DNA of 64,000 nucleotides from a candidate division FCPU426 bacterium (lineage in GTDB: Bacteria > Oederibacteriota > Muellerivitia > Muellerivitales > Muellerivitaceae), in contig CAWCKJ010000003.1 of assembly GCA_963796105.1 (NCBI GenBank), positions 376,353 through 440,352 of the forward strand. Reading direction: 5' to 3'. The notes under the pieces were generated by a model. It did not search any database and was not told the DNA's origin. It saw only the letters and a list, made by a program, of their open reading frames with translations. This document shows positions 19,601 through 64,000 of this stretch, in pieces. Positions within the stretch are counted from its first letter, which is position 1. Every line of letters begins with the position of its first letter. The translations under genes and the position numbers were made by a program.

Positions 19601-20469
19601 GGAACCACTCCCTGGCGGTAAGCTTGAATTTCCCTTGGACCGCCACCGGCGACAATGAATTCGGGGTAGAACCCCAGGCGAACCTGCTTTCCCCGGTTAC
19701 CAATTTAACCGGAAAAACCTTGATCGCCCACCTCTGGGTGCCGTCCAACTTCCCCGTTTCGCTCCAGGCGGACATTTATTTTAAAAGCGGTGGATCCTGG
19801 GCCTGGCAAACCGGCCCCTCGACGACCCTGGTGCCAAACACCTGGAACACTCTGACTTTGGACCCAACCGTGTCCTTTAACGTGAGCGGTACTCCTGATA
19901 TCACCAATGTGCTGGGGATCGGGATACAGATACTTTATTCCGGGACTTGGACAGGCACGGTTTACATGGACTCCATGGACGTCCTCTACGTTGGAGGATC
20001 GCCCACCCCGACACCCACGGTTTCACCGACCATAACACCCAGTCCAACCTTGACACCCACCCCGTCCCTGACATCCACCCCCACTCTTACACTCAGTCCC
20101 ACGCCCAGCCCGACCAACAGTCCGACCCCCACCAACACCCCTACTCCGTCCCCTACGCCGACCCTGACGCAAACCCCGACACCCACGACGGCCTGTGTGG
20201 CTCCCCTGCTTTACCCGAATCCCGTCAGGGGAGACACGATGCAAATACGCCTGTCTCCATGCTCGATTACCCCCCACGTATCGGTGAAACTTTTCACGGT
20301 TTCATTCCGGAAAGTGATGGACTTGGATGTCAACCCGATTCCATCGGCCGGGAATTTCTCGCTTCCCCTGTTGGATAATTGGAACAAGCCTCTCACGAAC
20401 GGCTTGTATTACCTGGTGATTACCACGCCCCAAGGAAGGACCATCACCAAGATGCTGGTGATACGGTAA
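16672..20469 (+). CDS. Secreted SASA/SGNH-type carbohydrate esterase (sialate O-acetylesterase-like GQSNM motif) with multiple beta-sandwich/ASH-like domains, Thr/Pro linkers and a T9SS-type C-terminal sorting domain
   Basis: 1265 aa. Signal peptide. [10 protein letters not shown] (nucleophile Ser motif). TPT-rich linkers. Final ~80 aa [15 protein letters not shown]...ITKMLVIR matches the Por secretion C-terminal domain pattern. The true start may be the internal Met (MKPLLS...). Confidence 0.7.
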
Positions 20470-24820: not shown

Positions 24821-24896
<76 letters not shown>

Positions 24897-25028: not shown

Positions 25029-26060
25029 TCAAAAAATGCGGAACTGGTTGAATCTCATGTTAAGAGCGAAGTAAAAAGTATCCTGGCTGGTGGTTTGAAA
25101 ATCAGCGGGGTCATAAGCGATATCGACTGAGAAATCGTTGTCATCAATGGCACGGGTTAAACTGCATCCTAGCGTGTAATTTTCAAAAACATTGCCCGTA
25201 AACTGCGAAAAGGATTGAAACTGGTACCCCCCGCGGACGCAGAACAGTTTCGGGAAGACCCAAACCTCGCCGCCTATGCCCATTTTCATGCCTTGATCCG
25301 AAGGTTTGAAAACCTCTAAACCCAGGTTCATGTCTTTTTGGTTCCCTAGATCCTGATGGATGCCAACCCCCAAGCGGATGAACATGGGAAGGGGATCCGC
25401 GCTCCCGGTCAAAGCCTGGTCGAATTTCATGCTGGTCCCTATGTTCAAGATCGAAAGGCCAGCCTTGATCCCGTAGGGTAATTTTTCCAATGTCGCGCCG
25501 ACGTTAAAACCTAGTGCCTCGGAGGAATAGGACGCTAAATCGCTTTGGATGTATTCCAACGTGCCCCCCAAACGGATCGCGGGTGAGACTTTCGTGGCGA
25601 ATGTCCCCGAAACCAATATGTCGTCCGCGTTAACCGGCGGAGCGCCGTTCTGGTTGTCCACTGGAGGCATATGGCGGTACTCGAAATTGAGCGCAGCCGC
25701 GGTCTCAAAACCAATCGCCGAGGCGAAGGTCAAGTATTCATACTGGATCTGAGCCAAACTATCTAAATGGTAGATGAGTAATTGGGAGGCTTTCAAGTTT
25801 GACAAACCAGCGGGATTATAATCAATGGAATAGGCGTCATCCCCCATTGCGGTATAAACACCGGCCATCCCGGCAGGACGCACTCCCTGAGTGATTTTTA
25901 AAAGGTCAGCCGTCGTGGTACCGACAGTTTGGGAAAAGGTCCGGCAGAACCCCGCCGCCACAAAAAATACAAATAACCATCCGATAATTGATTTTGATCT
26001 GAACATATTTTCTAGTTTCATCATTCCTTCCCTCCTAAAAACCTTATATAAAAAAATCAA
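25029..26060 (-). CDS. PorV-like (T9SS shuttle family, FadL-fold) outer-membrane beta-barrel protein, paralogue 1
   Basis: 343 aa with a signal peptide. N-terminal motif LLKITQGVRPAGMAGVYTAMGDDAYSIDYNPAGLS matches the PorV hallmark (FLxISPxARSxGMGxAGxAxxxDAxSxxWNPAxL). Alternating beta-strand pattern and C-terminal aromatic residue. Confidence 0.5.
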   Translation of the reverse strand: MIFLYKVFRREGMMKLENMFRSKSIIGWLFVFFVAAGFCRTFSQTVGTTTADLLKITQGVRPAGMAGVYTAMGDDAYSIDYNPAGLSNLKASQLLIYHLDSLAQIQYEYLTFASAIGFETAAALNFEYRHMPPVDNQNGAPPVNADDILVSGTFATKVSPAIRLGGTLEYIQSDLASYSSEALGFNVGATLEKLPYGIKAGLSILNIGTSMKFDQALTGSADPLPMFIRLGVGIHQDLGNQKDMNLGLEVFKPSDQGMKMGIGGEVWVFPKLFCVRGGYQFQSFSQFTGNVFENYTLGCSLTRAIDDNDFSVDIAYDPADFQTTSQDTFYFALNMRFNQFRIF

Positions 26061-27028
26061 AATTTGGTGCTGATGGAAATTCGATGCGTGTCCCCGAAGA
26101 CATCCTCGGGAGCGTAAGCATAATCCAGGAAAGCCACTGTGCCGTTGAAATCAAGTCCATAACCGGCCCCTAGCGTGGGGCCCACCCCGCTGAGGGAAGT
26201 GTCCAAAAACTGGTAGCCGCCCCGCAAAGTGGCCCTGTTGCCAATCCATTTCAAATTATACTCTACACCAACCCGCATCCCAACCTTGTCTTCAATGGGT
26301 TGGATGGGGAAAATAGCGTCCACGCTGATGGCGCCGTCATCCTGGTCGGAAAAAAGCTCATAACGCCTGTAAGAAATCCCCGTATTGAGGCTGAAAGGTA
26401 AATCAAAGCTGGATTCCTGCGCTCCAAGGTTTTTAAGCGCTATTCCGACTCTCATTCCGTCAAATGGCGGCAGGACAATCAATCCCGCGTCTAAGCTGAA
26501 AAGGGACGAGGAAAGGGTATCAATCTGTTGTTGCATTAATTTCCCAGTCAAGCCGAAGTGCACCGCTTGGCTGATTTCATGGGCGTATGAAAGGGTGAAT
26601 ATACTGTCGCCGCTGGAAAAAGTCCCGACTGTCTGGCCCTGGTCGTTCGTCCTGGGCATATTTCCCGGCTGGAGAAGGTTCACGCTGATGGCCGCGACCC
26701 CTCCGATGGAGGGGGAGAAAGACCCCACGGGGGTGGCAAAAGCGACGAACTCATAACTCATCTGCTGATAAAGCGAAAGATATGTCAAATTTAATTCATT
26801 AGTGAGAACGCTGGCCAACCCCGCGGGATTGTAATATACAGCCCCGACGTCATCCCCCATGGCCGTATAGGCCTCGCCGCTTCCCATCGCCCTGGATACG
26901 GGAGAAATTTTCAAGAAATCAAAAGCACTACGCCCAGCGTTCGCTGTTTGAGCCTGAGAACTGCCAGAAAGACCGAGGGCAAAGAATAGAAAAGAGAAAC
27001 ATATGCGCTTCAAAAAAACGCGATTCAT
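26057..27028 (-). CDS. PorV-like outer-membrane beta-barrel protein, paralogue 2
   Basis: 323 aa with a signal peptide. FDFLKISPVSRAMGSGEAYTAMGDDVGAVYYNPAGLAS is a very close match to the PorV N-terminal signature. C-terminal ...ISISTKF. 4-bp overlap with paralogue 1. Confidence 0.55.
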   Translation of the reverse strand: MNRVFLKRICFSFLFFALGLSGSSQAQTANAGRSAFDFLKISPVSRAMGSGEAYTAMGDDVGAVYYNPAGLASVLTNELNLTYLSLYQQMSYEFVAFATPVGSFSPSIGGVAAISVNLLQPGNMPRTNDQGQTVGTFSSGDSIFTLSYAHEISQAVHFGLTGKLMQQQIDTLSSSLFSLDAGLIVLPPFDGMRVGIALKNLGAQESSFDLPFSLNTGISYRRYELFSDQDDGAISVDAIFPIQPIEDKVGMRVGVEYNLKWIGNRATLRGGYQFLDTSLSGVGPTLGAGYGLDFNGTVAFLDYAYAPEDVFGDTHRISISTKF

Positions 27029-28591
27029 TTAGGCTCCGTTCCGCGAGCGGGAGATTGCGATCTTGCCAAACTGTTTAGATCCATTTGGTCCCTCAATCAG
27101 ATACAGGTAAAAACCCGAGGAAACTGGATTACTGTCGCCATTCGTCCCATCCCAGATAAAAGTTCCTAGGTTTAAATTGGAAGAAATCAAGAATACACTG
27201 GGATCAGTTGAGTTCAATACTTTCACTAATTCGAGCTTGATGGTGTAAATTTTCAAGGTTGATCCGACCGGCACGCAGGCGAATTTGATACAACCATGCG
27301 AACCGCATGAACCAAGAGTGCCAGAGGGCAAGTGGTTATTCGGTGGACTTGCCTGGAAATCCATTGGATTGGGATAGATGTAGATGGGACAAGGAGTCTG
27401 GGTCGGCGGAGGCGTCATGGTAAATGTACCCGTGGGGGTGATGGTAAAAGTGTTGGTCGGAGTATCGGTGATGGTCGGTGTATAGGTGAAGGTGTATGTG
27501 TATGTGTTTGTAAAAGTGTTAGTGTATGTATAAGTGGGGGTGTAAGTATATGTGTATGTGAATGTGTTGGTAAAGGTCGGGGTGCTAGTCCAAGTATAAG
27601 TATAGGTATAGGTGTTGGTAACAGTCGGAGTGCCGGTGAAGGTACTTGTGAACGGCGGAGTCCAGGTGCCCGTCGGGGTTTGCGTAAGCGTGGGAGTTTG
27701 AGTTGGGCTCAAGGTGGCCGTTGGAGAGTCTGTTTGGGTCGGAGTCTGGGTGAACGTATTGGTTGGAGGCGGGGTCGGGGTGTTCGTTGGAGATAACGTG
27801 GGTGTGAATGTATCTGTATTTGTCGGCGTAGGGGTAATGGTGGGAGTATTCGTTTTAGTGGGTGTTTCAGTGACGGTATAGGTAAAAGTCGGGGTGGGGG
27901 GCACGATGCAGGGCAATGTGCCGGACCACCTCAGGTTGTCCATATAAACCAAGTTGGAATCCATTTCATCAGCAAATCCTGAAGGAATGATGACCTGGAC
28001 CAAACTAACCGGATGTGTCAAACCTGACACATCAACAAAAATCGTCGACCAAGTATTGGCAATTGTGGAACCAGCTAAAATACCGGAAACGGCGCAATTA
28101 TAAACAAGGTCATTATCCGTAACGGCGGTAACCGCACCGCTTGTATCAATTACTGTAATATCCATTTTTCTTCCTATATTGGCAGTATATACATCCAATT
28201 CGATAAAACTTTGGGTCGATTGAACTGTTGCGGCAGTTCCCGGATGAGGATCGGTATAAGTCAATGTAACACCACAATCTTCACAATCCTGGCTTGCATT
28301 GGTATACCCCGTTGTTAAGGGTGAGGTTTCGCCCAGATTCAAATTATCCGGATTTGTGGTGTTATTAGTGAGTACCCCCAATGAGAAAACCGTTCCGGTT
28401 CCCGAGGGGTCGGAATTAGTAACCATCCAACTTGTTATAGCATTGTCGAAATGCTGGTTCGGGTCGTTTGATAGCGGATAACAGGTTATCCCAAAAGCAG
28501 AAGAATATCCGGAAAGGAAAGTCAAAATAAAAAGAATTGAATAACCCAACCCCAGGGATTTAACAGAAAACAAATCTCGTTTTAAAAACAT
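27029..28591 (-). CDS. Secreted protein with long Thr-Pro / Thr-Tyr low-complexity linker and T9SS-type (FlgD-Ig-like) C-terminal sorting domain
   Basis: 520 aa. Signal peptide. ~230-aa N-terminal globular region. ~170 aa of TPTxT/TYTYTYT repeats, visible in the DNA as a GT-rich microsatellite-like tract at 27480-27640. C-terminal IYPNPMDFQAS...GTFIWDGTNGDSNPVSSGFYLYLIEG...KIAISR matches the Por_Secre_tail / FlgD_ig pattern. Confidence 0.55.
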   Translation of the reverse strand: MFLKRDLFSVKSLGLGYSILFILTFLSGYSSAFGITCYPLSNDPNQHFDNAITSWMVTNSDPSGTGTVFSLGVLTNNTTNPDNLNLGETSPLTTGYTNASQDCEDCGVTLTYTDPHPGTAATVQSTQSFIELDVYTANIGRKMDITVIDTSGAVTAVTDNDLVYNCAVSGILAGSTIANTWSTIFVDVSGLTHPVSLVQVIIPSGFADEMDSNLVYMDNLRWSGTLPCIVPPTPTFTYTVTETPTKTNTPTITPTPTNTDTFTPTLSPTNTPTPPPTNTFTQTPTQTDSPTATLSPTQTPTLTQTPTGTWTPPFTSTFTGTPTVTNTYTYTYTWTSTPTFTNTFTYTYTYTPTYTYTNTFTNTYTYTFTYTPTITDTPTNTFTITPTGTFTMTPPPTQTPCPIYIYPNPMDFQASPPNNHLPSGTLGSCGSHGCIKFACVPVGSTLKIYTIKLELVKVLNSTDPSVFLISSNLNLGTFIWDGTNGDSNPVSSGFYLYLIEGPNGSKQFGKIAISRSRNGA

Positions 28592-28600
28592 TCACTTCTC

Positions 28601-31600
28601 CTAAAGCACTATATCCAGCAAATTGAATGCCCCCACCGCGACCAAATCCGACCTTTCGGGTGTCGGTAACCGGTTCAAAGCCGGAATATTGGGTGTTGAA
28701 ACCGTAAGATTCCCCAGAACCTGTTGGTTTTCCGGCGCCAATCGATTCGGAACACCATTGGAAGGAGTTCCTAAAACCGCCTGGCTCTCCGAAGTAGCCC
28801 TATTATCCCTATTTGGAAGGGTTCGCGCAACTGATTCAAAGGCTGAAATTTGTGGGGTTGAAAATATGGGATTCAGCAACGGTGGAGGTTGCTGACTTGT
28901 GACGGTTTGGACTGGAGGGGCAGATGTGGCAAAAAAACCCTGACTTGAGGGTGAAAAGGTGTTCAAAGAGGCGATTTGAAGGGCACTTAGGGTTTCCTGC
29001 AACCTTTGACTCAAAGCTTTTCTACCGACTTCCCTGATCCGATCCTGAATAAGTTGGTCCTGGGTTTCCTGGCTTAAAGCATCCGGTCCGGGACCCACGT
29101 TCGGGATAATCACGAATGGTTTGGCTCCTGTCAATTGGTCCTGCGTATTCTCAGTGGTCGAACCCTGAAGAGGGGCGGAAATATTGATATTAAGGTTTGT
29201 CGTCAAGGGAACAGCCGGCAATGGGGAGGGCGCCACTAACCTGGAATGAACCGGAACTTTGTTCTCAGCGATGACCACTTCACTATTAGTCACATTGGAA
29301 AAGGTGGGTCCCTGGTTTGGTTGAAAGGGATTTAACAGCCCTGGATACGCTGCTTGTCCGGGATTGGGAATATTGGGCATCTGAGCGGGCTCCAAATTGA
29401 CATTGTTTTGAGGCGCAACGGGAGTCTGGATACCTTTTGCTCCCACTTGAGGACTCCTTCGCCTGGAATCAAGACCTATCGTTACGGGTGGATTTTGATT
29501 TGAAAATTGGTTATTTAGGGTCGGTGTTTTTCCTGGGCCAATTTCCTTATTCCCCATGGTTTCGGGATTGGGATTAGAAATGGGCTGAACAGCCTCAGGA
29601 GTTAAAGTTCGAGGATTTAGAGACTCTGTTTCCGGAAGGTTGACGGCTATTAAATTTTGATTCGAAGGCCCGCCAGCCATTACCCGAAAATTCGGCTCCC
29701 GTGTCCCTGTCAGCGCGAATTGCTTAGGTTGGTTCTGTGTACCAGCCTGAGTAGTAGGTCTCACCGCAACCGGCTGGTTTTGAGTCCTTTCAGGATTGGT
29801 TTGGGGCATTTGAACCTTGGTTTCCTTCTGTTCCTCATTGGCGGTTGTTCTCAAATTTTGATTGGCAATGGGTTGAACCGCTTCCGGAGGAGCCGGTCTT
29901 GAAGGCTGATTCGAGTTTACAGGCGCTTGATTAATGATCGGATTAGTTTGAACCGGCCCGCCCGCCACAACCCTGAAATTAGGCTCCCGAGTCGCAGTCC
30001 GAGCTGATTGCGTAGGTTGGTTCTGTGTACTTGTTTGGGAAGTAGGTCTCACCGCAACGGCCTGGTTTTGAGCCCTTCCAGGATTGGTTTGGGGCATTTG
30101 AACCTTGATTTTCGGTTGCTCCTCGTTGGGGGTCGTTCTCAAGTTTTGATTGGCAATGGGTTGGACCCCTTCCGGAGGAGCCGGTCTTGAAGGCTGATTC
30201 GAGTTTACAGACGCTTGATTAACGGCCGGATTAGTTTGAACCGGCCCACCCGCCACAACCCTGAAATTAGGCTCCTGAGTCTCAGTCCGAGCTGATTGCG
30301 CTGGTTGGTTCTGTATACCAGCCTGGGTATTAGGTCTCACCGCAACCGGCTGGTTTTTAACCCTTCCAGGATTGGCTTGGGGCGTTTGAACCCTGGTTTC
30401 CGGTTGCTCCCAGTTGGAGGTTGTTCTCAGGTTTTGATTGGCAATGGGTTGAACCGCTTCTGGAGGCGCCGGTCTCGAAGGCGGATTCTCGTTTACCGGC
30501 GTTTGATAAACGGCCGGATTAGTTTGAACCGGCCCGCCCGCCACAACCCTGAAATTAGGCTCCCGAGTCGCAGTCCGCGCGGATTGCGCTGGTTGGTTCT
30601 GTGGACCTGTTTGGGTATTAGGTCTCACCGCAACCGGTTGATTTTGAACCCCTCCAGAATTTGCATGGGGCGTTTGAACCCTAGTTTCCGGCCGCTCCTT
30701 GTTAGTAGTTGTTCTCAAGTTTTGATTGGCAATGGGTTGAACCGCTTCCGGAGGCGCCGGTCTTGAAAGCGGATTCTCGTTTACCGGAGCTTGATTAACG
30801 GCCGGATTAGATTGAACCGGCCCACCCGCCACAACCCTGAAATTAGGCTCCCGAGTCACAGTCCACGCGGGTTGCGTTGGCTGCTTCTGAGTTCCAGCCT
30901 GGATATCAGGCACCACCGCAACCGGCTGGTTTTGAATCCTTCCAGGATTGGTTTGGGGCGTTTGAGCCCTGGTTTCCGGACGCTCATTGTTGACGGTTGT
31001 TCTCGAGTTTTGATCGACAATCGGTTGGATTGTTTCAGGATTCCCTGGTTTTAGAGCCGCCCCGGAGGACTCAATCCTAGAATTGGAATTGGTCGCGGCA
31101 GGGATTACGGTTCCCCGAGCAACGGCTTGCGCGCTTTCAAATTGAAGGTTATTACTTCCGGTACCAGGTTGGATGAGATTTATTTCAACCCCGCCTTTTC
31201 CCGCCATATTGGGAAAGGCCTGGCCCCGATTAACGGGACCCTCCAAGCGTGAATGACCTGTTGTTTCCGCTGATACGGTTTTGGCATTAGCCCCGGGAAT
31301 TTTGGAATTTTCACCCACAACTCTTGAATTTCGAGCGTCATTGAAACGGTTATTGGGAAGATTTGTTTCAGCTGGATTCCCGCTGGGATGAATAATATTT
31401 TGATTACCGGCCGTCTGACCAGTCACCCCGCCCTCCATTACAGGGAAATCCTGTTTTGAAAATCGATCCGCCGGCGGAGGAAGAAGAAGATTTTTTAATT
31501 GATTCAATCCGCTTTGAAGGGTTTGAACCCCCTGGATGGCGTCTTGGATGACCATCGGGAGGGGTCCGAATTTCTGGGTTAAAAAATTAACGGCTTTTAC

Positions 31601-31756
31601 TGAAAGTTTTTCATCCCGTGACGCCTCCGGCTTGGGGTCCTGATTGATTTTCCTCAAGGCGGGGTCTGTCCCCAGAACAAGGGGTTGAACCGTTAGATCG
31701 TCCTTTCTCCTGACGGAACCGATGGAGTTATTTCCAATGAATGAGTATCCAGCCAT
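28601..31756 (-). CDS. Large Pro/Gln/Asn-rich tandem-repeat protein of unknown function located immediately downstream of flbD
   Basis: 1051 aa with no clear signal peptide. About five tandem 96-aa units (REPNFRVVAGGPVQTNPAVNQAPVNENP.SRPAPPEAVQPIANQNLRTT.N.E.PETRVQTPQ.NPGR.QNQPVAVRPNTQ.G.QNQP.QSARTAT). Unique ~235-aa N-terminal and ~300-aa C-terminal regions. Confidence 0.5.
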   Translation of the reverse strand: MAGYSFIGNNSIGSVRRKDDLTVQPLVLGTDPALRKINQDPKPEASRDEKLSVKAVNFLTQKFGPLPMVIQDAIQGVQTLQSGLNQLKNLLLPPPADRFSKQDFPVMEGGVTGQTAGNQNIIHPSGNPAETNLPNNRFNDARNSRVVGENSKIPGANAKTVSAETTGHSRLEGPVNRGQAFPNMAGKGGVEINLIQPGTGSNNLQFESAQAVARGTVIPAATNSNSRIESSGAALKPGNPETIQPIVDQNSRTTVNNERPETRAQTPQTNPGRIQNQPVAVVPDIQAGTQKQPTQPAWTVTREPNFRVVAGGPVQSNPAVNQAPVNENPLSRPAPPEAVQPIANQNLRTTTNKERPETRVQTPHANSGGVQNQPVAVRPNTQTGPQNQPAQSARTATREPNFRVVAGGPVQTNPAVYQTPVNENPPSRPAPPEAVQPIANQNLRTTSNWEQPETRVQTPQANPGRVKNQPVAVRPNTQAGIQNQPAQSARTETQEPNFRVVAGGPVQTNPAVNQASVNSNQPSRPAPPEGVQPIANQNLRTTPNEEQPKIKVQMPQTNPGRAQNQAVAVRPTSQTSTQNQPTQSARTATREPNFRVVAGGPVQTNPIINQAPVNSNQPSRPAPPEAVQPIANQNLRTTANEEQKETKVQMPQTNPERTQNQPVAVRPTTQAGTQNQPKQFALTGTREPNFRVMAGGPSNQNLIAVNLPETESLNPRTLTPEAVQPISNPNPETMGNKEIGPGKTPTLNNQFSNQNPPVTIGLDSRRRSPQVGAKGIQTPVAPQNNVNLEPAQMPNIPNPGQAAYPGLLNPFQPNQGPTFSNVTNSEVVIAENKVPVHSRLVAPSPLPAVPLTTNLNINISAPLQGSTTENTQDQLTGAKPFVIIPNVGPGPDALSQETQDQLIQDRIREVGRKALSQRLQETLSALQIASLNTFSPSSQGFFATSAPPVQTVTSQQPPPLLNPIFSTPQISAFESVARTLPNRDNRATSESQAVLGTPSNGVPNRLAPENQQVLGNLTVSTPNIPALNRLPTPERSDLVAVGAFNLLDIVL
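29600..31050. repeat. Tandem direct repeat, unit 288 bp, ~4.5-5 copies (coding repeats inside 28601..31756)
   Basis: The string ccacaaccctgaaattaggctcccgag recurs at 29966, 30254, 30542 and 30830, with a degenerate copy near 29690. Antisense ORFs at 29657, 30008, 30296 and 30791 on the plus strand are shadows of the same periodicity. Confidence 0.8.
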
Positions 31757-31788: not shown

Positions 31789-31989
31789 TTAATGGTTTTC
31801 CACCACTTTGGGATAACAGCGGGACTTATACTCGACGATATGTCCTACTACTTGGGAGATGGTTTCCTTGACGGTCATTTTCTTGCCGTTTTGGAGTGTA
31901 AGTATCGTCTCAGGTGAGCTCTCCAGAAAAAGAATTAAATCGGCGTTGACATAAACTTCCCGTCCGTCTAATCGGGTTACTGGTATCAT
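31789..31989 (-). CDS. flbD: Flagellar protein FlbD
   Basis: MIPVTRLDGREVYVNADLILFLESSPETILTLQNGKKMTVKETISQVVGHIVEYK matches FlbD (MIKLTRLNG.EFYLNPDLIE.IE.TPDTVITLTNGKK). The internal ATG at 31989 with an upstream GGTGAGG Shine-Dalgarno is preferred over the longer ORF from 32043. Confidence 0.75.
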   Translation of the reverse strand: MIPVTRLDGREVYVNADLILFLESSPETILTLQNGKKMTVKETISQVVGHIVEYKSRCYPKVVENH

Positions 31990-32223
31990 TGCCTCACCTT
32001 CAATGCCTTCAACTTCTATTTTATCACAAGATACCCAGGCCATGGCCCAATTACAAGACCAGTTGACTCATGCCGACATCGATGGAGCAACTTGATAAAC
32101 CCAAATTTTTCCAAGTGAGTCTAAAAAAAACGGCGCCCCCCGTGAAGGAAAGCGCCGCCTATTCCAACAAAACCGTGCTTCCGGTTGCCCGGAAGCACGG
32201 CCTCAATCTTTAAAACTCAGTTA

Positions 32224-34182
32224 TCAACCACCCTGGCCCAATTGGGTCAGGACCTGCAGGTTGGCGTTCTCAACCGCGATCACGCGGGAATTCACGTCAA
32301 ATCCCCTTTGCGCGATGATCATATTGGATAACTCCGTCGTCAAATCGACGTTCGAAGCCTCCAAAGCGCCTCCCTCAATGGTCCCAAGGCCGAGCTTTCC
32401 GGCCGTTCCCACTGTTTCCGCACCCGCGTTAGTCGAAGCTTGATAGTAATTGTTCCCAACGTTATCTAAACCGCCCTCATTCTCAACGTTCGCCATGGCA
32501 ATCTGCCCCAAAGCCGTGGTCTGACCGTTGGAGAACGTCCCTTGAATCGTCCCAGTGGCGTCAAAAGCGAGGCTTTGCAGGGTGCCGTCAGCGTAACCGT
32601 TCTGTGTTTCCGTGGCGTGGCTGTCCGGAACATAAGTGTTGACCCCGTTCACGATCTGGTAGGAACCTTCCGCGTCCCCGGTCAAGCCGTCCCGCTTGCC
32701 GTAGATATAGGAAGTGCCATTGACGCTGCTTTCCGAACCGGCGGTGCCAAAATTCATGTTGACTGCCATGATCTCGGCCCCGAAAGTAGGAATAGGTGAT
32801 ACAGGATTTGCGCCCTCGTTAATGGGTGCCAAGTATATGGTGGCTTGGCTTTGCACATCTTGATTCGTAGCGGCAATGTTACGAACTCCACCCATCGAAG
32901 CCAAGGAGCCATCGGTATTGAAATAGATGAAATCTCCCCAATACTGGTCGCCGGCTGTACCCTTATCATAACCAGCCAAAGCGGCTAGAGGGGCTGGCAC
33001 AGGTTGTGGTTGTCCCGGGGGTGTTCCAATTCCGCCAATCTCACCTTGGGTAATTCCAGTGCCGCCAACCAAAGTCGCGTCGCTGACTTTGCCTCCGTTG
33101 GTGGTGTCAAAAGCGTACCAAGCATAACAAGTCTGGTTTGGCCCTGCCAGATTGTTAATAGGCGGATTGGCCGTACCCAGATCCATGACCTGGTAGAACT
33201 GGGTGGTGATCTGCCGAGCGGTCCCAGTCGAATCATAAACAGTCGTGGTAGTTGTCAAAGCCGGAGGAATCGGCGGGTTTTGATCCCAAGCGTAATTCCC
33301 GCCGTCGGCTACCACGTCAGCCAAGTCTTGTCCTTGCGTCATGACAGGCGTCGTCGGCTGGAAAGTAGCGGTCGCCAAGGGATTGTTCGGGTCAGGCGGC
33401 TGGCTCAGATTCCCCAACTCTATCATGGCAAACGTTCCATTCGCATTTCCCGGGGGATAGGGTACCAGTGCCGCTTTCGCGGCATTCATCTGGGCGGTTT
33501 GGAACATGAATGGGAGAACCGGTGCCAAATTGCTCCCCACATTCAAAGGATCGGCTTGTTGGAAGGAATCCAGATTTCCGACAAAGTTAAGCTGGGTCGT
33601 AGCCTTGGCTGGTTCCACGAAATTCGGGCTGATCTGGATTTTCCCGATGTTAGCCGGGTTGGAATTATCCAGTACCAGGCTCGCGGTCGTGATCACTGAG
33701 GGCTGTTGGCCAAGAGGTCCCCGAGTGTCCAGGATTTGGGTCGAATACTCGGTCTGGGCGCTCCATCCCTGGATCAACCCACCGTTCTGGTCGACCAAGT
33801 TTCCGACGCTGTCAAAGGTCAAGTTGCCGGCCCTGGTCAAATAGGTTTGACCGGCCTTGTTTGACATCAGGAAGCCGTTGCCGTTGATGGCGATGTCCGT
33901 CGAAAGCCCGGTTTGTTGGATGGCCCCTTCCGTCCATAAAGTGGTAATGGAAGCGACTCTTGTTCCCAATCCCACCTGCTGTGGATCGACCCCGCCGAGA
34001 TTACTGCCGGTGTTGTCCCCCTGGCCGGAATAAAGCGTTTGACTCAACGCATCCTCAAACTCCACTCGGCTGGCCTTGTAAGCCACCGTGTTGGTGTTGG
34101 AGATGTTATTTCCGATCACATCGAGCCAAGTGCTATTGGCTTCCAGGCCGGAAATGGCGCTAAACATGTCTCGAAGACCCAT
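32224..34182 (-). CDS. flgE: Flagellar hook protein FlgE
   Basis: N-terminal MGLRDMFSAISGLEANSTWLDVIGNNISNTNTVAYK and C-terminal ASNVDLTTELSNMIIAQRGFDVNSRVI are canonical FlgE termini. The start at 34182 has a perfect AAGGAGG Shine-Dalgarno 6 nt upstream, so the ORF-track start at 34242 is probably too long. Confidence 0.9.
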   Translation of the reverse strand: MGLRDMFSAISGLEANSTWLDVIGNNISNTNTVAYKASRVEFEDALSQTLYSGQGDNTGSNLGGVDPQQVGLGTRVASITTLWTEGAIQQTGLSTDIAINGNGFLMSNKAGQTYLTRAGNLTFDSVGNLVDQNGGLIQGWSAQTEYSTQILDTRGPLGQQPSVITTASLVLDNSNPANIGKIQISPNFVEPAKATTQLNFVGNLDSFQQADPLNVGSNLAPVLPFMFQTAQMNAAKAALVPYPPGNANGTFAMIELGNLSQPPDPNNPLATATFQPTTPVMTQGQDLADVVADGGNYAWDQNPPIPPALTTTTTVYDSTGTARQITTQFYQVMDLGTANPPINNLAGPNQTCYAWYAFDTTNGGKVSDATLVGGTGITQGEIGGIGTPPGQPQPVPAPLAALAGYDKGTAGDQYWGDFIYFNTDGSLASMGGVRNIAATNQDVQSQATIYLAPINEGANPVSPIPTFGAEIMAVNMNFGTAGSESSVNGTSYIYGKRDGLTGDAEGSYQIVNGVNTYVPDSHATETQNGYADGTLQSLAFDATGTIQGTFSNGQTTALGQIAMANVENEGGLDNVGNNYYQASTNAGAETVGTAGKLGLGTIEGGALEASNVDLTTELSNMIIAQRGFDVNSRVIAVENANLQVLTQLGQGG

Positions 34183-34269
34183 TGTCTTCCTCCTTGAAAT
34201 TAGGCGGGCATTAAACCCGCCGGGTTTTCGGGCTTCCTCCAAGAGGTCCAGCCCGTTCGCTGCTTAAGA

Positions 34270-34680
34270 CTAAACAATCACCGCGCTATCGATATTCGTG
34301 AAGACATTTTCTTTCATACTGCCCCCATCCAGCGCGGTTATGACCGTCCGATTCGTTACGCTGACAATGAAGGCCTGACTATCCATCACCAGAAGGGACT
34401 GTTTCGCGCCCTTGGCCGCGGCCTTATTCACCCCGGTCGTGATGCGATCCATATCATCCTCTGAAAGCTGGATGTTTCTCAGGCTCAACCGCTCCTTCGC
34501 GTGAGCGGAAAACTTCAAAGACTCTCCCTTTCCCACCGCCGTCTGGAAAACCGTCTGAAAAGGCTGTACGCCCTCCGCCGCCCGGCTCGCCTGCTGCTGG
34601 ATCACCTTCAACTGAGCCTGGCTTTGGACCTTGTCCACGGGATTGAGATGGGAATCGTTAAAGTTCACTTGTTGAACCAC
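34270..34680 (-). CDS. Flagellar operon protein (TIGR02530-like, found between flgD and flgE in Firmicutes-type loci)
   Basis: 136 aa. The KFSAHAKERLSLRNIQLSEDDMDRI block resembles this family (KFSKHAQERL.QRNI.LS). Position between flgD and flgE is conserved synteny. Confidence 0.5.
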   Translation of the reverse strand: MVQQVNFNDSHLNPVDKVQSQAQLKVIQQQASRAAEGVQPFQTVFQTAVGKGESLKFSAHAKERLSLRNIQLSEDDMDRITTGVNKAAAKGAKQSLLVMDSQAFIVSVTNRTVITALDGGSMKENVFTNIDSAVIV

Positions 34681-34747
34681 TTTGTCTTCACCTGCCCTTC
34701 ACCGGCCCGGACCTAACCAAGCCAAAATTAAAAACTCACACTACACC

Positions 34748-35188
34748 TCAACCACCAGATGCTGAAACAACATTCCCCACATTTTGTACAGATGACAAAG
34801 GATAATTCACCCCGTTCACCTGAACAGCAGGACCGTTCGCGTAATAAACAATTCCGCTGACTTGCCCAGTCGTAAACCCGCTCGGCTGACTCGGATCCGC
34901 CACTGTGACAGTTTGCCCAATCATTGAAACGGCTGAGTTTTCCAAAACCGTTTCCATGCTTGTATTCATGTTGGACATTTGTTCCAGGGACGAAAACTGA
35001 GCCAATTGAGCGACAAACTGGCTGCTATCCTGCGGATTCATCGGGTCCTGGTTCTTCAGCTGTGTGATCAGGAGCGTTAAAAAAGTGCTCTGGGACACAA
35101 ACTGATTATTCGCGGTAACTGCGCCGGCCAAAGCGTTACTGTTGCTAGAACTTGAACCACTTACCCCGCTGATTGCCATTAAAATCAC
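34748..35188 (-). CDS. flgD: Flagellar hook capping (scaffold) protein FlgD
   Basis: 146 aa. FLTLLITQLKNQDPMNPQDSSQFVAQLAQFSSLEQM is the FlgD signature block. Confidence 0.85.
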   Translation of the reverse strand: MILMAISGVSGSSSSNSNALAGAVTANNQFVSQSTFLTLLITQLKNQDPMNPQDSSQFVAQLAQFSSLEQMSNMNTSMETVLENSAVSMIGQTVTVADPSQPSGFTTGQVSGIVYYANGPAVQVNGVNYPLSSVQNVGNVVSASGG

Positions 35189-35267
35189 CCCGCTTTCGAT
35201 TCCAACTCTTACGTAAACTAACGGCTTAAATCGTTAAAACTTAACCTTTTTTCGCTAAAAAAACCAC

Positions 35268-38200
35268 TTAAACCAACATATCCACCAAAGAAGTTCGCAG
35301 GGACATAGGCGCTAAAACATCAATATTTTCAAGCGTTTCAGAGGATTGGAGCGCCAAATCGGACAAATAACCCTTGTTAGAAGGGCCAAAACCTTCCCTC
35401 TGATATTGGAAATATTGGGCCAAAAGGTTCGTGGACCCGCCTTGAACATGGACTTGGAGCTGGTCAATCTGGAGGCCCGATTGGCTTAAGGCGGCCTTTA
35501 AATCGACCAAGTTATGCTGAAGGGCTTCCTTGACATCAGGATTGGACACTGTAATCCTGGCTGATACAGCCTGATCCACCAGTGAAACCTGCACGGTAAC
35601 CCGGCCTAAGTTGGCGGGGACCAATTGGAAGTTGAGCGAAGTTACCATTTTTGCATCTGCGGCGTGAGCCGTGATTTGATCCGTAACTTGCCGGAATAAC
35701 GTCACATTATCCAAAGTATTATTCTGCTGATTCAAAACCGCGTTATTCCCGGCAGACAAGATAACTTTATCAGCATCTCCATTATCCCCGGACGTTTTTA
35801 GGTTTGGATTGGTTAAGTCCTTATTCCCGGAGCCGGTCAACACGGAATTGCTTGAAATCAATTCGTTCATTTGCGAGGAATTTCCTGTGTTGGCAACTGC
35901 GATTACAGCCTGAGGCGTCAACGGTTGGACCACCGATGTAGTTTCGACATTCAAGTTGCCCAGAGAAGTATTGTCAGTAGATTTCAGCAGGTTCTGAGTT
36001 GTAACCTGAGTTTTGCTCGCGTTCAACGTTGACATTGAACCAGTCAAGTTTTGAGCGTTTGTAACCTGGGGTGCTAAGGAAGCGGGATTAAATGTTTGAT
36101 CAACAGCTTTCCTAGCGCCGGGATTACTCTGATTTTCAAGTGAATAAGCGGGATCATTGTTGGTAAGATTTTTCGAATTTCCAGGAGAATGATTGCCCAT
36201 GGAAACTGATAAATTTATTCCCGGAGATAAACTTTGCTGAGAGGCATTCGTGTTTTGCAGATCCAGGCTTGAAGCAATCAAGTTTTGTGCGGTGATATCA
36301 GAAATACTGTCACTTAAAGGATTTTCTGGAATCGAAGGGTTCGAATTATTCATTGATATTCCCTGATTCGAGGAACTATTTAGAATTATCGAAACTGGTT
36401 GAGCAGTCGATGGATTTGATTGCTTTTGTCCATTATTTTCTAAAATTGTTTGATTTTGTTCTTTAGGCTCAGATAGCAAAAGTTGATTTTCATCTTTTTG
36501 GCCGTTCAAAGAAGCAATCGGGATTTGCCGTTGTGAAGTCTGAAGCGCATCTTTCGGAATCACTGAGACTTCGGCAAAAATTGCGGTTTCGCTAAGCACT
36601 TTTGAATTTTGTGAGTTGGGCGATCCAACTTCAATATTAGGAATAATCAAGCCTGTGCTTGTCGTCAACCTTGACCGTTTGTCGCCGCCATCAATGGTTA
36701 GACCACTCTGGCCAGAAGTTTGATCATTTTGGCTCTTCACATCCGGTGTCCTTGTTACCGGCTTCGTAGGTTGCACATCAGCTAATATGTCGATTGGGGC
36801 GGAAATAACATTTGAAATTTCAGGATCGGAGATTACAGCATTCTGTTGTTGAACCGAGTTATTTATTGTTCCCACATTATTTTGCTCGTTTCCATTGTTG
36901 GGCGCAGAATTCGTTCCTGCCGGAGTAAAATTCCGGAATTGAGAAGAGTTATTAATCTTAATTGAATTTCCAACTGCTTCGCTAAAATTCAACAAATTCC
37001 TCTGGGCCAGCAAATTATTGATTTGGTTTATCTCATGCGTGTCCCACGAACCTAAAGCCTCGAAATGGCTCGGAAAACCCTTTTGATTCAAGGTTGAATT
37101 TTGCGATGCCAAGAGCGCTTCAGCATTCAAATTGTTATTTATGGTTGGAGTTTTTCCATCTTCGATCGGCAGTACAAGATTATTAACCTGAGAAGAGACA
37201 TTATTCTTAGAAGAAATTTGGCTCAAGATTGTTCCCAATTGAATATCTTGATTCTCCCGCAAAATGCTAGTCGTTTGATTTGTGGGCAAAGGACCGTCAT
37301 CGGTTTTGCCCGCAGGGATTGAAAGGTATTCATCAGGAGTTTGATGACTGGGAGCAGCTAGCAATTTTGAATCCGGCGAATTATTTTTGTTGCCATTTTG
37401 CGAGGTGTTTAAAACCACCTGATTCGCGCCAACTTTAGTAAGTAATTGAACTAAATTTTTTAAGTTTTGGACGTCATTTGAATTAGAAGTGCCGGCTTGA
37501 ACAGGTTCTTGGATTACAGTTATCGGCTGGTATTGAGTTCCATTTGCGCCCAATTCCGATAAGGTTTTCAAAACAGCATTTACCTTTTCTTGAGAAATGG
37601 TTCCATTAGTGTCCAAAGGAACTCCCGGACGGGGAGTGAATAAAAAGGGCTCTTGAATTCCATTTGTCAGGCTTTGGTTTACTTGTTGACCCGAATCAAC
37701 ACTGGCGGCAAAATCAGAAATAGTTTGATTCGTTTCGGATGTTGCACTATTGAAATTCAAGTCCTGGTTTGGCTGATTTAACAGAGTTAGCAATTGCGTG
37801 TTTTGAGACAAGATTTGCTGTAAAAGATTCCAAGCGTTGTTTTGGATCCCTGTAGAGGTCTGTATTCCAGGATTAGTTTTATCTGTCAGTTCAGCGTTTT
37901 TCAAATCGCTTAAAATTTCAGCGGCATCCGCTGAACTTATTTTTCCTCCCCCAAGCGATGCAAGAAGGTTTTGAGCTTGGGCCGGATCATTTTGAGCGAG
38001 ATTTAAAAGACGGCTAATAAATTCTTTTAAATCAGGCATCTGCTGAACCGAAGGTATTAATACAGAAGCATTGCCGTTTATTATAGCGTTCCCATGATTA
38101 TCTTGAATTAAGCCCGAATCGTTTGATTTTGAATTCTTATTGAATACAGCACTGTTGTTATCATTTGAATTACCATTACCAGATGTAAATACCTTGCCCA

Positions 38201-38327
38201 TAACGTCATCAAAAGAGTTACCCTGCGAATTGCCACCCCTAGGAGACACAATAGAACTCTTCAAGAAAGCCGAGCTCTCACTAGGTGCAGCTTGAAATAA
38301 ACTTAAAAGTTCACTGACGTTTTTCAA
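35268..38327 (-). CDS. fliK: Flagellar hook-length control protein FliK (unusually long, Asn/Gln/Ser-rich)
   Basis: 1019 aa. C-terminal LVPANLGRVTVQVSLVDQAVSARITVSNPDVKEALQHNLVDLKAALSQSGLQIDQLQV matches the FliK C-terminal (Flg_hook) domain. Position fliK-flgD-flgE is standard synteny. Confidence 0.7.
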   Translation of the reverse strand: MKNVSELLSLFQAAPSESSAFLKSSIVSPRGGNSQGNSFDDVMGKVFTSGNGNSNDNNSAVFNKNSKSNDSGLIQDNHGNAIINGNASVLIPSVQQMPDLKEFISRLLNLAQNDPAQAQNLLASLGGGKISSADAAEILSDLKNAELTDKTNPGIQTSTGIQNNAWNLLQQILSQNTQLLTLLNQPNQDLNFNSATSETNQTISDFAASVDSGQQVNQSLTNGIQEPFLFTPRPGVPLDTNGTISQEKVNAVLKTLSELGANGTQYQPITVIQEPVQAGTSNSNDVQNLKNLVQLLTKVGANQVVLNTSQNGNKNNSPDSKLLAAPSHQTPDEYLSIPAGKTDDGPLPTNQTTSILRENQDIQLGTILSQISSKNNVSSQVNNLVLPIEDGKTPTINNNLNAEALLASQNSTLNQKGFPSHFEALGSWDTHEINQINNLLAQRNLLNFSEAVGNSIKINNSSQFRNFTPAGTNSAPNNGNEQNNVGTINNSVQQQNAVISDPEISNVISAPIDILADVQPTKPVTRTPDVKSQNDQTSGQSGLTIDGGDKRSRLTTSTGLIIPNIEVGSPNSQNSKVLSETAIFAEVSVIPKDALQTSQRQIPIASLNGQKDENQLLLSEPKEQNQTILENNGQKQSNPSTAQPVSIILNSSSNQGISMNNSNPSIPENPLSDSISDITAQNLIASSLDLQNTNASQQSLSPGINLSVSMGNHSPGNSKNLTNNDPAYSLENQSNPGARKAVDQTFNPASLAPQVTNAQNLTGSMSTLNASKTQVTTQNLLKSTDNTSLGNLNVETTSVVQPLTPQAVIAVANTGNSSQMNELISSNSVLTGSGNKDLTNPNLKTSGDNGDADKVILSAGNNAVLNQQNNTLDNVTLFRQVTDQITAHAADAKMVTSLNFQLVPANLGRVTVQVSLVDQAVSARITVSNPDVKEALQHNLVDLKAALSQSGLQIDQLQVHVQGGSTNLLAQYFQYQREGFGPSNKGYLSDLALQSSETLENIDVLAPMSLRTSLVDMLV

Positions 38328-38337
38328 TCATTTCACC

Positions 38338-40935
38338 TCAAGTTGATTTAGGCTGGAAAATACTGGTCGACGTAGACCCACCAACCACATTCACCAAATC
38401 GGAATACATTTGATCGATCACCTGAAGAACTTGCAGTAAGGCGTTGTAAGTAATTAAAGATTGCATTGCCTGTTGTTCAATATTCGCGATGGGCACTCCC
38501 GGGGTTGATGTGGTGGAAGTTGAACCACTTGTAGTACCAGTCGAAACACCCGCGATATTGGCCTGGGCGTCATTCAATTGTGTTAGGGAATCTGAAGCCT
38601 GATTAGTAAGTAATTCCTGATTTGAAACATCTCCTCCAATTTGAGTCAATAATCCGGCAGCAATATTCCCTACAGAAGTAAGATTACCGTTTAAACCAGT
38701 GAAATCGGTAAAATTTCCGGAATTATCGAGGATTGTTATAGGTTGAGGGGTATGGTCGAACAGAGTCAACGTCTGGGTTCCAGTATTAAAACTGGCAGTA
38801 ATGGCGTTACCCGTAGCCGTTGCGATCTCCTGAGCGATCGCAGATAGGGACATCGTATCAGTCCAAAGTATTTGGTAAGTTTGATTATTCCCCGCCGTAA
38901 TGGTAAAAGTTCCACTTGTTCCTGGAATAACACGGTAAGCCTCGGCATTGGGACCTGTGTTGAAATTAGTGGCGATACCAATTGAATCCAAAGCGGTTGA
39001 AGCCGGGAAAGTTGCATCAACATAGTCGATCTTAGGCTCCGAACCGGCAAAACTATTATTCATCCGGATGGAGCTGGACAGGACATTGGACAGGTTACTC
39101 CAATTCGAAACACCACCTATGAAATTCCCGGAGACATTAACCAGGCTTATGGGATTGTTGGAAAAAATGAAAAACTGCCGAGCAGTGGCGTTATAAACAG
39201 CGTTGACGTTAGGGTCTGCCGCGTTGATTTTTGCGAGGATGCTGTCTATTGAGTCCGCGAGAGTATAAGTTACCAATTGTTGATTAACGGTAAACGACCC
39301 GGCGACGGGCGGCGTGGAAAAAATTAATGTCCCGATGGGTTGGGTAGGATCAAGAATAGCTCCAGCAATTGCCGGTTGGCTTTCCATGAGGTTGTTTCCC
39401 AAAAGATTCGGAAGATTGCCAAGGAATTTGGCGATAGTCCCATCGGCGGTATCGTTAGGATTAATTGCGGCAGCTAACAATTCATTATTGGAAATTAATC
39501 CGCCATTAACGCTTATATTACCGGCGCCAAAACCAGTGAAAAATGCAGTACCGGTGGTAGTTCCATTAGCCGCATAACCTGCTTCATGAAGAGTATTGGT
39601 AACATTAATTACCGATGTGGCAATTTGGTCCACTTGGTCTTTATAGGATTCTAAAACGACATTCGATGATTGAAGTTCCCCAGCAAGATTCCCCCCCGTG
39701 ATCAAAGAACTTATGTCATTGTCAACTATCGCGGAGGGCGAAAAAGTAACTGTATTAGCCCCGGGATCAATTTGAGACCAACTTAGAAAGTTATCTCCAC
39801 CAATTTCCGTGATGACAAGCGGATTGGGTCCTGTGCCATTAATCATAATTTGTTGCGCAACAGGGTTAAAAGTTGCAGTAACGTTTTGTATAGCGTCAAT
39901 TTGAGCAATGATAGAATTAATTGAATCAACCGCGGGATTATAGGCAACGACCGTTCCATTAATAGTAAAGGAACCGCCTGTAGGAGCCACAGTAAACAAC
40001 CCGGCTTGGCTGGCTAGGGTTGCCGCCGCATTGATCTTATTCGGTGCTGGCAGTAAAGGATTATTAATCGGGCCCCCACCCGCGGCGGTGACCCAAGTCG
40101 TAAGCGATCCATAAGGTGTCCCATTAGCCAAAGTAAGCGTCACAGAAACCAAATTCGGGTTATGCTGGTTATCAATGGAAGTTTGCAAAGTCGTAGCGCC
40201 CCCGGAATCAAGCAAGGCAACCCCGCCCAAATACACACTGACGGTTCCGTTGTTCCCAATAACAACCTGATTATTAATTAACATCGAGAGTAGGTCTAAT
40301 GCGTAATCGCGGGCATCTAGAAGACTGTTTTGATTGGAGCCTTGTGTAGTGTTCAGCTGTTGATTAATCGAGGACAATTGTTGAAGTAGTTGATTGATTT
40401 GAGTCACCGTTGAATTAATCTGACCATTTATATTCAATTGATCGTTCTGCAAAGCCTCATATTGGGAATTTGCCAACTGAGCAAAAGTTACGCCATCATC
40501 AATAACATCGGTTCGCAAACCGTTATTTAATGGATTCGCGGATAAATTCGTCCAATCTTGAGCGAAAGTTGACAACGCCCCGCTTAAGGTTGCGTTCCCA
40601 TTGACGATGCTATTAATATTAGCGAGCGTCTGGTTTAAAATTTCGGCCTTGCCCAAAACCGAACTTTCCTGCTGAATTTGTTGGTCCAAATATAAGTTTC
40701 TTAATCGTGTAATGCTTTCCACGTAAGGACCGCTTCCAACATATTGAATTCCAGTGCCTGAATAAAATGGCGTTGATATTCCATCGCTTACATTAACTCG
40801 TTCAAGACTATTCATCAAATAACCTTGCGAGTCTAAAGATGGCTGTGCCAAATTAGAGGCCGTAACATCTTGTTCCAATTGTTGGAGAAGCAAAGCGCTT
40901 GTTATCGTATTAAGACTTTGAAAACTATTAATCAT
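38338..40935 (-). CDS. flgK: Flagellar hook-associated protein 1, FlgK (long form)
   Basis: 865 aa. N-terminal SFQSLNTITSALLLQQLEQDVTASNLAQ...DSQGY and C-terminal ANIEQQAMQSLITYNALLQVLQVIDQMYSDLVNV match the FlgK termini. It is preceded by flgN and flgM as in Bacillus. Confidence 0.8.
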   Translation of the reverse strand: MINSFQSLNTITSALLLQQLEQDVTASNLAQPSLDSQGYLMNSLERVNVSDGISTPFYSGTGIQYVGSGPYVESITRLRNLYLDQQIQQESSVLGKAEILNQTLANINSIVNGNATLSGALSTFAQDWTNLSANPLNNGLRTDVIDDGVTFAQLANSQYEALQNDQLNINGQINSTVTQINQLLQQLSSINQQLNTTQGSNQNSLLDARDYALDLLSMLINNQVVIGNNGTVSVYLGGVALLDSGGATTLQTSIDNQHNPNLVSVTLTLANGTPYGSLTTWVTAAGGGPINNPLLPAPNKINAAATLASQAGLFTVAPTGGSFTINGTVVAYNPAVDSINSIIAQIDAIQNVTATFNPVAQQIMINGTGPNPLVITEIGGDNFLSWSQIDPGANTVTFSPSAIVDNDISSLITGGNLAGELQSSNVVLESYKDQVDQIATSVINVTNTLHEAGYAANGTTTGTAFFTGFGAGNISVNGGLISNNELLAAAINPNDTADGTIAKFLGNLPNLLGNNLMESQPAIAGAILDPTQPIGTLIFSTPPVAGSFTVNQQLVTYTLADSIDSILAKINAADPNVNAVYNATARQFFIFSNNPISLVNVSGNFIGGVSNWSNLSNVLSSSIRMNNSFAGSEPKIDYVDATFPASTALDSIGIATNFNTGPNAEAYRVIPGTSGTFTITAGNNQTYQILWTDTMSLSAIAQEIATATGNAITASFNTGTQTLTLFDHTPQPITILDNSGNFTDFTGLNGNLTSVGNIAAGLLTQIGGDVSNQELLTNQASDSLTQLNDAQANIAGVSTGTTSGSTSTTSTPGVPIANIEQQAMQSLITYNALLQVLQVIDQMYSDLVNVVGGSTSTSIFQPKST

Positions 40936-41438: not shown

Positions 41439-41723
41439 CTAGAGATCGATAATTTTCATATCAATGAGACGGGCCGCAAGCTTGTTTGCATCAATTGCAA
41501 ATTTCCCCGTTTGGACTAATTGTGACAATTGTTCCACCTTCGCGTTTTGTGCCGCTTCCTGTTTTAATACTTCTCTATGAATCGACTGGAAAACTTCTGC
41601 AAACGAACTAAATGAAACAGATGATGACTGAGAATTTGAAGGCTCAGGTAGGATACTTTTTGATTTATCCGATTTAAAAGTTTGGAGAACAGCAGGAATA
41701 CTTTGAAAGCCATCGATCCTCAT
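41439..41723 (-). CDS. flgM: Anti-sigma-28 factor FlgM
   Basis: C-terminal KVEQLSQLVQTGKFAIDANKLAARLID matches the FlgM C-terminal sigma-28-binding helix region. The ATG at 41723 has an AAGGAG Shine-Dalgarno 6 nt upstream, so the ORF-track TTG start at 41729 is probably wrong. Confidence 0.75.
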   Translation of the reverse strand: MRIDGFQSIPAVLQTFKSDKSKSILPEPSNSQSSSVSFSSFAEVFQSIHREVLKQEAAQNAKVEQLSQLVQTGKFAIDANKLAARLIDMKIIDL

Positions 41724-41752
41724 AGGCAACTCCTTATGTTTTCTTAAGTTAC

Positions 41753-63974: not shown

Positions 63975-64000
63975 GCCAGAGGCTACGGACTCAGCGATAT

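Follow-up and report, generated by a model that had tools for sequence, protein, structure and literature searches.

Several bacterial proteins work through long, flexible segments. For instance, FliK is a disordered flagellar protein that acts through its length, serving as a molecular ruler in hook-length control, and the products of fliK, flgD and flgE are all flagellar export substrates. HubP and FimV, both large, have many tandem repeats within a disordered region and use multivalent binding to organise flagellar and chemotaxis machinery. Similarly, the Pro-rich or Pro/Gln-rich spacers of TonB, TolA, ZipA and FtsK form extended flexible tethers between two docking modules. Here we describe a gene, called X below, in a 64,000-nucleotide stretch of the genome of a candidate division FCPU426 bacterium (contig CAWCKJ010000003.1); this whole stretch is referred to as the window. 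Gene X occupies positions 28601–31756 on the minus strand and lies directly after the flagellar gene flbD. Judged from its codon substitutions, it is a genuine protein-coding gene under selection, confined to one narrow lineage. Its product is predicted to be an intrinsically disordered protein in which two small terminal docking modules flank a repetitive, motif-bearing flexible centre.

The open reading frame (ORF) of X runs from an ATG to a stop codon and encodes 1051 amino acids (aa), as an earlier note on this stretch had proposed. The ATG is preceded by an AGGA ribosome-binding site and, 15 nucleotides (nt) upstream, by an in-frame stop. The Pro/Gln/Asn-rich character given in that note is confirmed (P 12.9%, N 10.7%, Q 10.1%), with 2.8% aromatic residues and no Cys; Q and N together account for 21% of the product, which is slightly basic (net charge per residue +0.016). 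The claim that a signal peptide is absent also stands. No hydrophobic segment of the product would fit a signal peptide or a transmembrane helix, the maximum 19-residue Kyte-Doolittle hydropathy being 0.74. The Cys count is zero in X and in its single ortholog (P0002), against an expectation of about 8 based on the proteins of the window (P ~3e-4).

A codon-level comparison with this ortholog gives ratios of nonsynonymous to synonymous substitution rates (dN/dS) of 0.16 for the N-terminal 100 aa of X, 0.14 for the C-terminal 219 aa and 0.38 for the repeats. These values are comparable to those of FlgE (0.17) and FliK (0.20) in the same genome pair and are well below 1, and the frame of X is therefore under purifying selection. 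An artefact, whether a mis-assembled repeat, a spurious low-complexity ORF or a decaying pseudogene, would be suggested by the long ORFs present on the strand opposite the repeats and by the large heterogeneity in GC content across the window. Those opposite-strand ORFs are by-products of the repeats. Against an artefact stand the low dN/dS in the called frame, the conservation of the start codon, the ribosome-binding site and the N-terminus, and the intact ortholog on an independently assembled contig with an equal GC gradient. The repeat units also differ by 12–32% in DNA and share no exact common word longer than 63 base pairs (bp), a divergence that makes assembly collapse or expansion unlikely. 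An artefact can thus be effectively set aside.

The protein divides into five parts, all encoded on the minus strand. A conserved N-terminal module (aa 1–100; 31457–31756) is recognised from its identity to the ortholog, its dN/dS and a helical hairpin predicted by AlphaFold2 (aa 47–63 and 68–91; 31484–31618); its first 30 conserved residues are rich in Ser, Asn, Gly and Ile. An N/G/A-rich variable stretch follows (aa 111–232; 31061–31426), which aligns poorly between the orthologs and has no Pfam match at E<=10; read by eye, it may hold degenerate remnants of the repeats (NSRVVGENS, AVARGTVIP). The centre consists of five tandem repeats of 96 aa, or 288 bp (aa 233–712; 29621–31060), with units at 30773–31060, 30485–30772, 30197–30484, 29909–30196 and 29621–29908. 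Behind them lies a Pro/Asn-rich stretch (aa 713–832; 29261–29620) that opens with a partial sixth PEAVQPI motif. The conserved C-terminal module (aa 833–1051; 28604–29260), delimited by the same kinds of evidence as the N-terminal one, contains a predicted amphipathic helix (aa 896–927; 28976–29071) and the invariant hydrophobic tail RSDLVAVGxFNLLDIVL.

The array was detected by Tandem Repeats Finder as a 288-bp period at 29667–31027 (4.7 copies, 86% matches, score 1861), and at the protein level the five units keep an exact 96-aa register. The earlier note had described about five near-identical repeats of this size. The number and the register hold, but the near-identity does not, as pairwise identities are 68–88% for DNA and 57–83% for protein. 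Two islands in each unit, PxPExxQPIxN and PNFRVVAGGP..NP, vary little or not at all across the 12 aligned units of the two genomes, while the sequence between them is homogenised within each genome and diverged between the genomes. Neither motif occurs elsewhere in the window or in any of the loci examined. The five 96-aa units of X correspond to eight units of about 92 aa (276 bp) in the ortholog, which fits the suggestion that repeat count is a source of length variation. The two proteins are 68–71% identical over the N-terminal ~100 aa and 65–67% identical over the C-terminal ~220 aa, and the centre can be aligned only through the short motifs. AlphaFold2, run on a two-sequence alignment, returned a mean predicted local distance difference test score (pLDDT) of 29.7; the helices that it predicts are aa 32–38, the N-terminal hairpin (pLDDT 54–59) and the C-terminal helix at aa 896–927 (pLDDT up to ~70).

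The ortholog P0002, of 1090 aa and 40% identical to X in a local BLASTP alignment, is the only relative among 5.8 billion protein clusters. It is encoded directly after flbD on an independently assembled 115-kilobase (kb) metagenome contig (locus L001), where the order flgM, flgN, flgK, fliK, flgD, a 136-aa gene matching the Pfam family Flagellar_put, flgE, flbD, X, a 518-aa gene and two PorV-like genes is that of the window. The gene is thus kept in the one orthologous flagellar locus found, where the earlier note had advised looking. Both proteins have an N-terminal module of the form SVRR..L.VQPLVLGTDPAL ... AVNFL.QKFG ... IQGVQ.LQSG.NQLKNLLLP, repeats of 92–96 aa with PNFRVVAGGP and PEA[VI]QPI, the C-terminal RSDLVAVG.FNLLDIVL and the position after flbD. 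When the termini were searched exhaustively with HMMER against 1.84 billion representatives, no third member appeared, and by these searches the family has two known members among about 15 billion proteins. A HMMER match of the termini, P0003, was rejected; it is a Cys-rich satellite-like repeat with no flagellar context, and its score is the sum of many weak matches. A profile of the two termini returned no match from the 5.8-billion-cluster database, its own source proteins included, and is not counted as evidence.

Searches for known families agree with the earlier statement that X has no detectable homology to flagellar proteins. Against Pfam (whole protein at E<=0.01, four sub-regions at E<=10) the matches are at chance level, such as DUF6806 at 0.27; NCBIfam and PADLOC give no significant match. 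Matches to PHROGs (phrog_17036 at 0.065) and to PDB sequences, queried both by X alone and by a profile of its termini (3icc at 0.023), are also at chance level. X was not found in viral contigs, and BLASTP of its parts against all window ORFs, FliK included, revealed no paralog. Sorting signals of the PEP-CTERM, LPXTG and similar kinds are unsupported by eye and have no NCBIfam match in X. A metagenome scan with FlgE for distant relatives gave only a 2.9-kb contig ending at flgE and an irrelevant 2172-aa ORF.

In a canonical locus (L002) the order is fliK, flgD, flgE, flbD, motA, motB, fliL, fliM, and the earlier note was right, according to Pfam and this locus, that X directly follows flgD-flgE-flbD at the place where such operons carry the stator and switch genes. 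It was also right that MotA, MotB, FliL, FliM and FliG are absent from the window, as far as the ORFs scanned are concerned. Read from high to low positions on the minus strand, the window contains fliN/Y (cut by the edge), fliO, fliP, fliQ, fliR, flhB, flhA and flhF; a gene for a 135-aa membrane protein, fliA, fapA, two unknown genes and two PorV-family genes; flgF, flgG, flgA, flgH, flgI, flgJ, a YvyF-family gene, flgM, flgN and flgK; and finally fliK, flgD, the 136-aa Flagellar_put gene, flgE, flbD, X, a 520-aa gene and two PorV-like genes. Beyond the cluster at the low end come a tRNA gene (24824–24896, minus strand; Rfam tRNA, 74.6 bits), where the block conserved with L001 ends, and then PilZ, hemerythrin and housekeeping genes. 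The assertion that both ends of the flagellar locus are covered therefore holds for the low end and not for the high end. The last gene there, fliN/fliY (63084–64000, minus strand; Pfam FliMN_C), has a frame open to base 64000, and the flagellar locus accordingly runs past the edge.

What lies beyond can be judged from two more distant relatives (FliO ~43% identical), reached through the FliO homologs P0008 and P0011. Their order from fliN, fliO, fliP, fliQ, fliR, flhB, flhA and flhF to fliA and fapA is as in the window, and immediately upstream of fliN they carry fliE, fliF, fliG, fliH, fliI, fliJ, motA, motB, fliL and fliM. Since the window stops inside fliN/Y and relatives of the same order have these genes upstream of fliN, the stator and switch genes most likely lie just beyond the edge, and their apparent absence would be a window-edge artefact. 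The claim that they are missing or displaced by X is not upheld. In the two relatives motA directly follows fliJ; together with the order of L002, this adjacency indicates that the fliK-flgD-flgE-flbD block has moved out of its canonical place in the window's lineage, to the distal end of the cluster after flgK, and that X is simply the next gene downstream of the displaced hook block. A functional replacement of MotA, MotB, FliL, FliM or FliG by X has only the canonical position of motA after flbD in its favour. X has no transmembrane segment. Pfam, NCBIfam and hydropathy reveal neither the four-transmembrane MotA_ExbB channel nor the plug, transmembrane segment and OmpA-like domain of MotB, and there is no match to FliM, FliMN_C or FliG_N/M/C domains or to the transmembrane segment and periplasmic domain of FliL. 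With the genes themselves upstream of fliN in the relatives, and the window ending inside fliN/Y, replacement is, as far as these analyses reach, effectively excluded and has next to no probability.

Some features of the cluster deserve mention in their own right. In relatives L007 and L008, flhG (a MinD-like ATPase gene) and a PilZ gene sit between flhF and fliA; both are absent from the corresponding site of the window (55796–56046), between flhF (56046–57245) and the 135-aa gene (55389–55796). The axial and hook proteins encoded at 32224–40935 on the minus strand are unusually large, with FliK of 1019 aa, FlgE of 672 aa and FlgK of 865 aa. No flgL follows flgK, and the scanned ORFs of the window include no flagellin, fliD or fliS that was recognised. 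Outside any flagellar operon, a stand-alone FliO-like gene adjoins rho (L005, 10001–10723) on another contig of the sample that yielded L001; its product, P0005, is 58% identical to the window FliO and was discarded as a guide to relatives.

X appears to be co-transcribed in a five-gene unit with flbD, the 520-aa gene and the two PorV-like genes, as inferred from gene spacing and conserved signals. The first gene of this unit, flbD (31789–31989, minus strand; Pfam FlbD, E=1.3e-21), encodes 66 aa from the ATG at 31989, as does its ortholog in L001. Gaps of 32 bp between flbD and X, 9 bp between X and the 520-aa gene and 0 bp between the latter and the first PorV-like gene are followed by a 4-bp overlap; ribosome-binding sites are present, and spacing and order from flbD to PorV are equal in L001. 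Two hairpins lie right after the flgE stop codon (32120–32204, minus strand), and L001 keeps both stems (~9500–9600). In both genomes a T8 tail follows the second hairpin, which resembles an intrinsic terminator. The loop of the first is GNRA-like, reading GCAA in the window and GTGA in L001, and the T-run of this hairpin is kept in the window only. The pair may comprise a transcript-stabilising element and a terminator or attenuator. About 29 nt upstream of the flbD start lies the TTGTGATAAAATA element (TTGTGrTAAAATA; 32017–32029, minus strand), which is conserved in the L001 alignment and matches the pattern of an extended -10 promoter.

The downstream genes encode envelope proteins. The 520-aa gene (27029–28591, minus strand), syntenic in L001 with a dN/dS of 0.10, starts 9 bp after X, and its product shows by eye a signal peptide, an N-terminal domain, a Thr/Pro-rich linker and a C-terminal domain of the type IX secretion system (T9SS) kind; these two features of type IX cargo, signal peptide and C-terminal domain, are accompanied by a weak match to the PorZ C-terminal region. 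The first PorV-like outer-membrane protein (26057–27028, minus strand; 323 aa) is 86% identical to its syntenic counterpart in L001 (dN/dS 0.04); its only family match is a sub-threshold one to the FadL family (Toluene_X, E=0.006), and the label PorV-like reflects its likeness, by eye, to its neighbour. The second (25029–26060, minus strand) matches Pfam PorV and UPF0164 and is also syntenic (dN/dS 0.06). Its ORF is the one that overlaps the preceding gene, and its true start is probably the ATG at 26024. Synteny with L001 stops right after this gene, where the window has the tRNA and L001 has TraG/TrwB-type coupling-protein genes (17385–20035), which suggests that an integrative element was inserted in L001 at that point. 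Two further outer-membrane genes of the PorV/PorQ family are found inside the flagellar cluster (47493–51237, minus strand), between fapA and flgF; one contains an FlgD-Ig-like region and the other an fn3 domain. With this pair inside the cluster, a connection of such envelope proteins with the flagellum becomes plausible for this lineage. In the searchable literature, no paper was found that pairs the phrase "flagellar gene cluster" with "PorV".

With somewhat less than even confidence, we favour X as a flexible, multivalent tether or scaffold that is specific to this lineage and whose role would be linked to the flagellum or its envelope surroundings. X would be docked by its terminal modules and, through its repeated motif pairs, would hold several copies of a single partner, with reach and valency set by the number of repeats. 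We infer this tether mechanism, as well as any flagellar role of X. A number of points weigh against it. Homology searches gave no clue to what X does. Only two genomes have the gene, and as these are fairly closely related (FlgE 79% identical), their shared synteny says little about a functional linkage; the promoter and terminator near flbD are pattern matches only. X stands at the very edge of the flagellar cluster and may be unrelated to flagella. Furthermore, X has no signal peptide while its three downstream partners are secreted or in the outer membrane, and a common compartment would therefore need a non-Sec export route.

Two alternatives stand beside this reading. X may be a substrate of flagellar type III export, an unfolded ruler, tether or regulator like FliK or FlgM that reaches the periplasm or the outside and there meets the products of the downstream genes. 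This would explain why X lacks a Sec signal though it is encoded with secreted and outer-membrane partners. It would also suit the complete lack of Cys in both orthologs, the disorder predicted throughout, the Ser/Asn/Gly/Ile-rich conserved N-terminus, the location of the gene directly after the hook block fliK-flgD-flgE, and a size, Q+N content and divergence rate like those of FliK (1019 aa, Q+N 22%, 0 Cys, 49% identity between the genomes). However, neither a Flg_hook nor a FlgM domain is found in X even at E<=10, genuine FliK and FlgM are both present, and X has no similarity to FliK. Hook-type export substrates carry FxxxPhi as a gate-recognition motif. Such a motif is not clear by eye in X, where FLTQK has Lys at the fifth position, and the lack of Cys is typical of disordered proteins generally. 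On balance we regard type III export of X as rather unlikely.

Alternatively, X may not be flagellar at all, being the first gene of a cell-surface module that abuts the last flagellar gene and also includes two PorV-like shuttles and a cargo, the 520-aa protein with its T9SS-type C-terminal domain. This reading is favoured by that domain and by the role of the PorV family in shuttling cargo of the type IX secretion system. Further points for it are the edge position of X, its tightest coupling, across the 9-bp gap, to the 520-aa gene and through it to the PorV-like genes, and the absence of any flagellar family signature. Nevertheless, the 32-bp gap between flbD and X leaves no room for a terminator or promoter, and the conserved pair of terminator-like and promoter-like elements lies upstream of flbD and not of X. 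X itself has neither a Sec signal peptide nor a C-terminal sorting domain and hence is not cargo, and PorV-family genes occur also in the middle of the flagellar cluster. A surface module is unlikely in our judgement, though slightly less so than type III export.

A more elaborate version of the tether would make X a length-tunable, disordered and type III-exported link between the basal body or rod and the co-encoded PorV-family barrels and T9SS-type protein; we consider this improbable. Equally doubtful is the extension by which such a tether set and the second PorV pair together form a so far unknown accessory structure of the flagellum at the outer membrane, made of type IX secretion-type parts and belonging to an uncultured lineage. 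If X is flagellar, a lineage-specific disordered part with a length tunable by repeat number has been added to a conserved machine, and its being encoded with PorV-type outer-membrane proteins would point towards an as yet undescribed accessory of the flagellum in the envelope of an uncultured group. At present the value of the analysis is mostly corrective, in that the seeming loss of stator and switch genes is attributed to the window edge. Unless X proves to have a role in the flagellum or the envelope, this orphan in a suggestive operon is of moderate to low interest.

The GC content changes in steps along the window, from 50–63% at 1–24 kb (gltB, with 0.86 GC at third codon positions, GC3) through 47–54% at 24–36 kb to 33–43% at 36–64 kb (flhA, GC3 0.26). 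An equal gradient from flgM to PorV is found in the independently assembled L001 (1–23273), and the window is therefore no chimera at X. One possibility is that the mostly AT-rich flagellar cluster beside a GC-rich housekeeping flank is a horizontally acquired island. The non-flagellar flank also encodes a YadA-type trimeric autotransporter adhesin (14224–15483, minus strand) and a protein of 1265 aa that combines SASA esterase with mannanase-type binding domains (16672–20469, plus strand).

Set against described systems, X lacks the defining domain of every compared family that could be tested. The HubP/FimV polar landmark proteins are likewise large, with tandem repeats in a disordered region, but have an N-terminal signal or LysM, a transmembrane anchor, acidic repeats and a FimV C-terminal domain, none of which occurs in the slightly basic X. 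The Pro/Gln-rich flexible segments of X recall the spacers of TonB, TolA, ZipA and FtsK. These proteins, however, are membrane-anchored and have recognised terminal domains, whereas X has neither; hydropathy, Pfam and NCBIfam reveal no transmembrane anchor and no LysM, FimV_C or TonB_C domain. In PopZ a disordered, Pro-rich linker joins an N-terminal helix to a C-terminal helical module, and the interactions are multivalent, much as may be the case in X, but PopZ is about 180 aa long, acidic and free of repeats, and no sequence relationship was detected. FlbD/SwrD, recently shown to assemble into hexameric rings, is a small factor associated with the motor, and MotA is its predicted, unvalidated partner (PMC13232269). 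It is unrelated to X, is the sole annotated flagellar operon partner of X, and is a candidate ligand.

Among the flagellar proteins, FlgM is represented by a typical 96-aa ORF (41439–41729), with an FlgM bearing the Pfam domain at the matching position in L001, and X has no match to PF04316. FliK resembles X in being long, largely disordered, Q/N-rich, Cys-free, fast-evolving and variable in length, in its location in the hook block and in having no Sec signal. It differs in that X has no C-terminal Flg_hook domain, the type III secretion specificity switch (PF02120; whole X at E<=0.01, C-terminal 218 aa at E<=10), whereas the genuine FliK at 35268–38327 does (E=8.5e-18); moreover, X contains long tandem repeats with conserved motifs that FliK lacks, and the two share no sequence similarity. 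X thus represents a new sequence family with two members, though one of a generally familiar kind, and by analogy with these systems it would work most like the disordered rulers and tethers.

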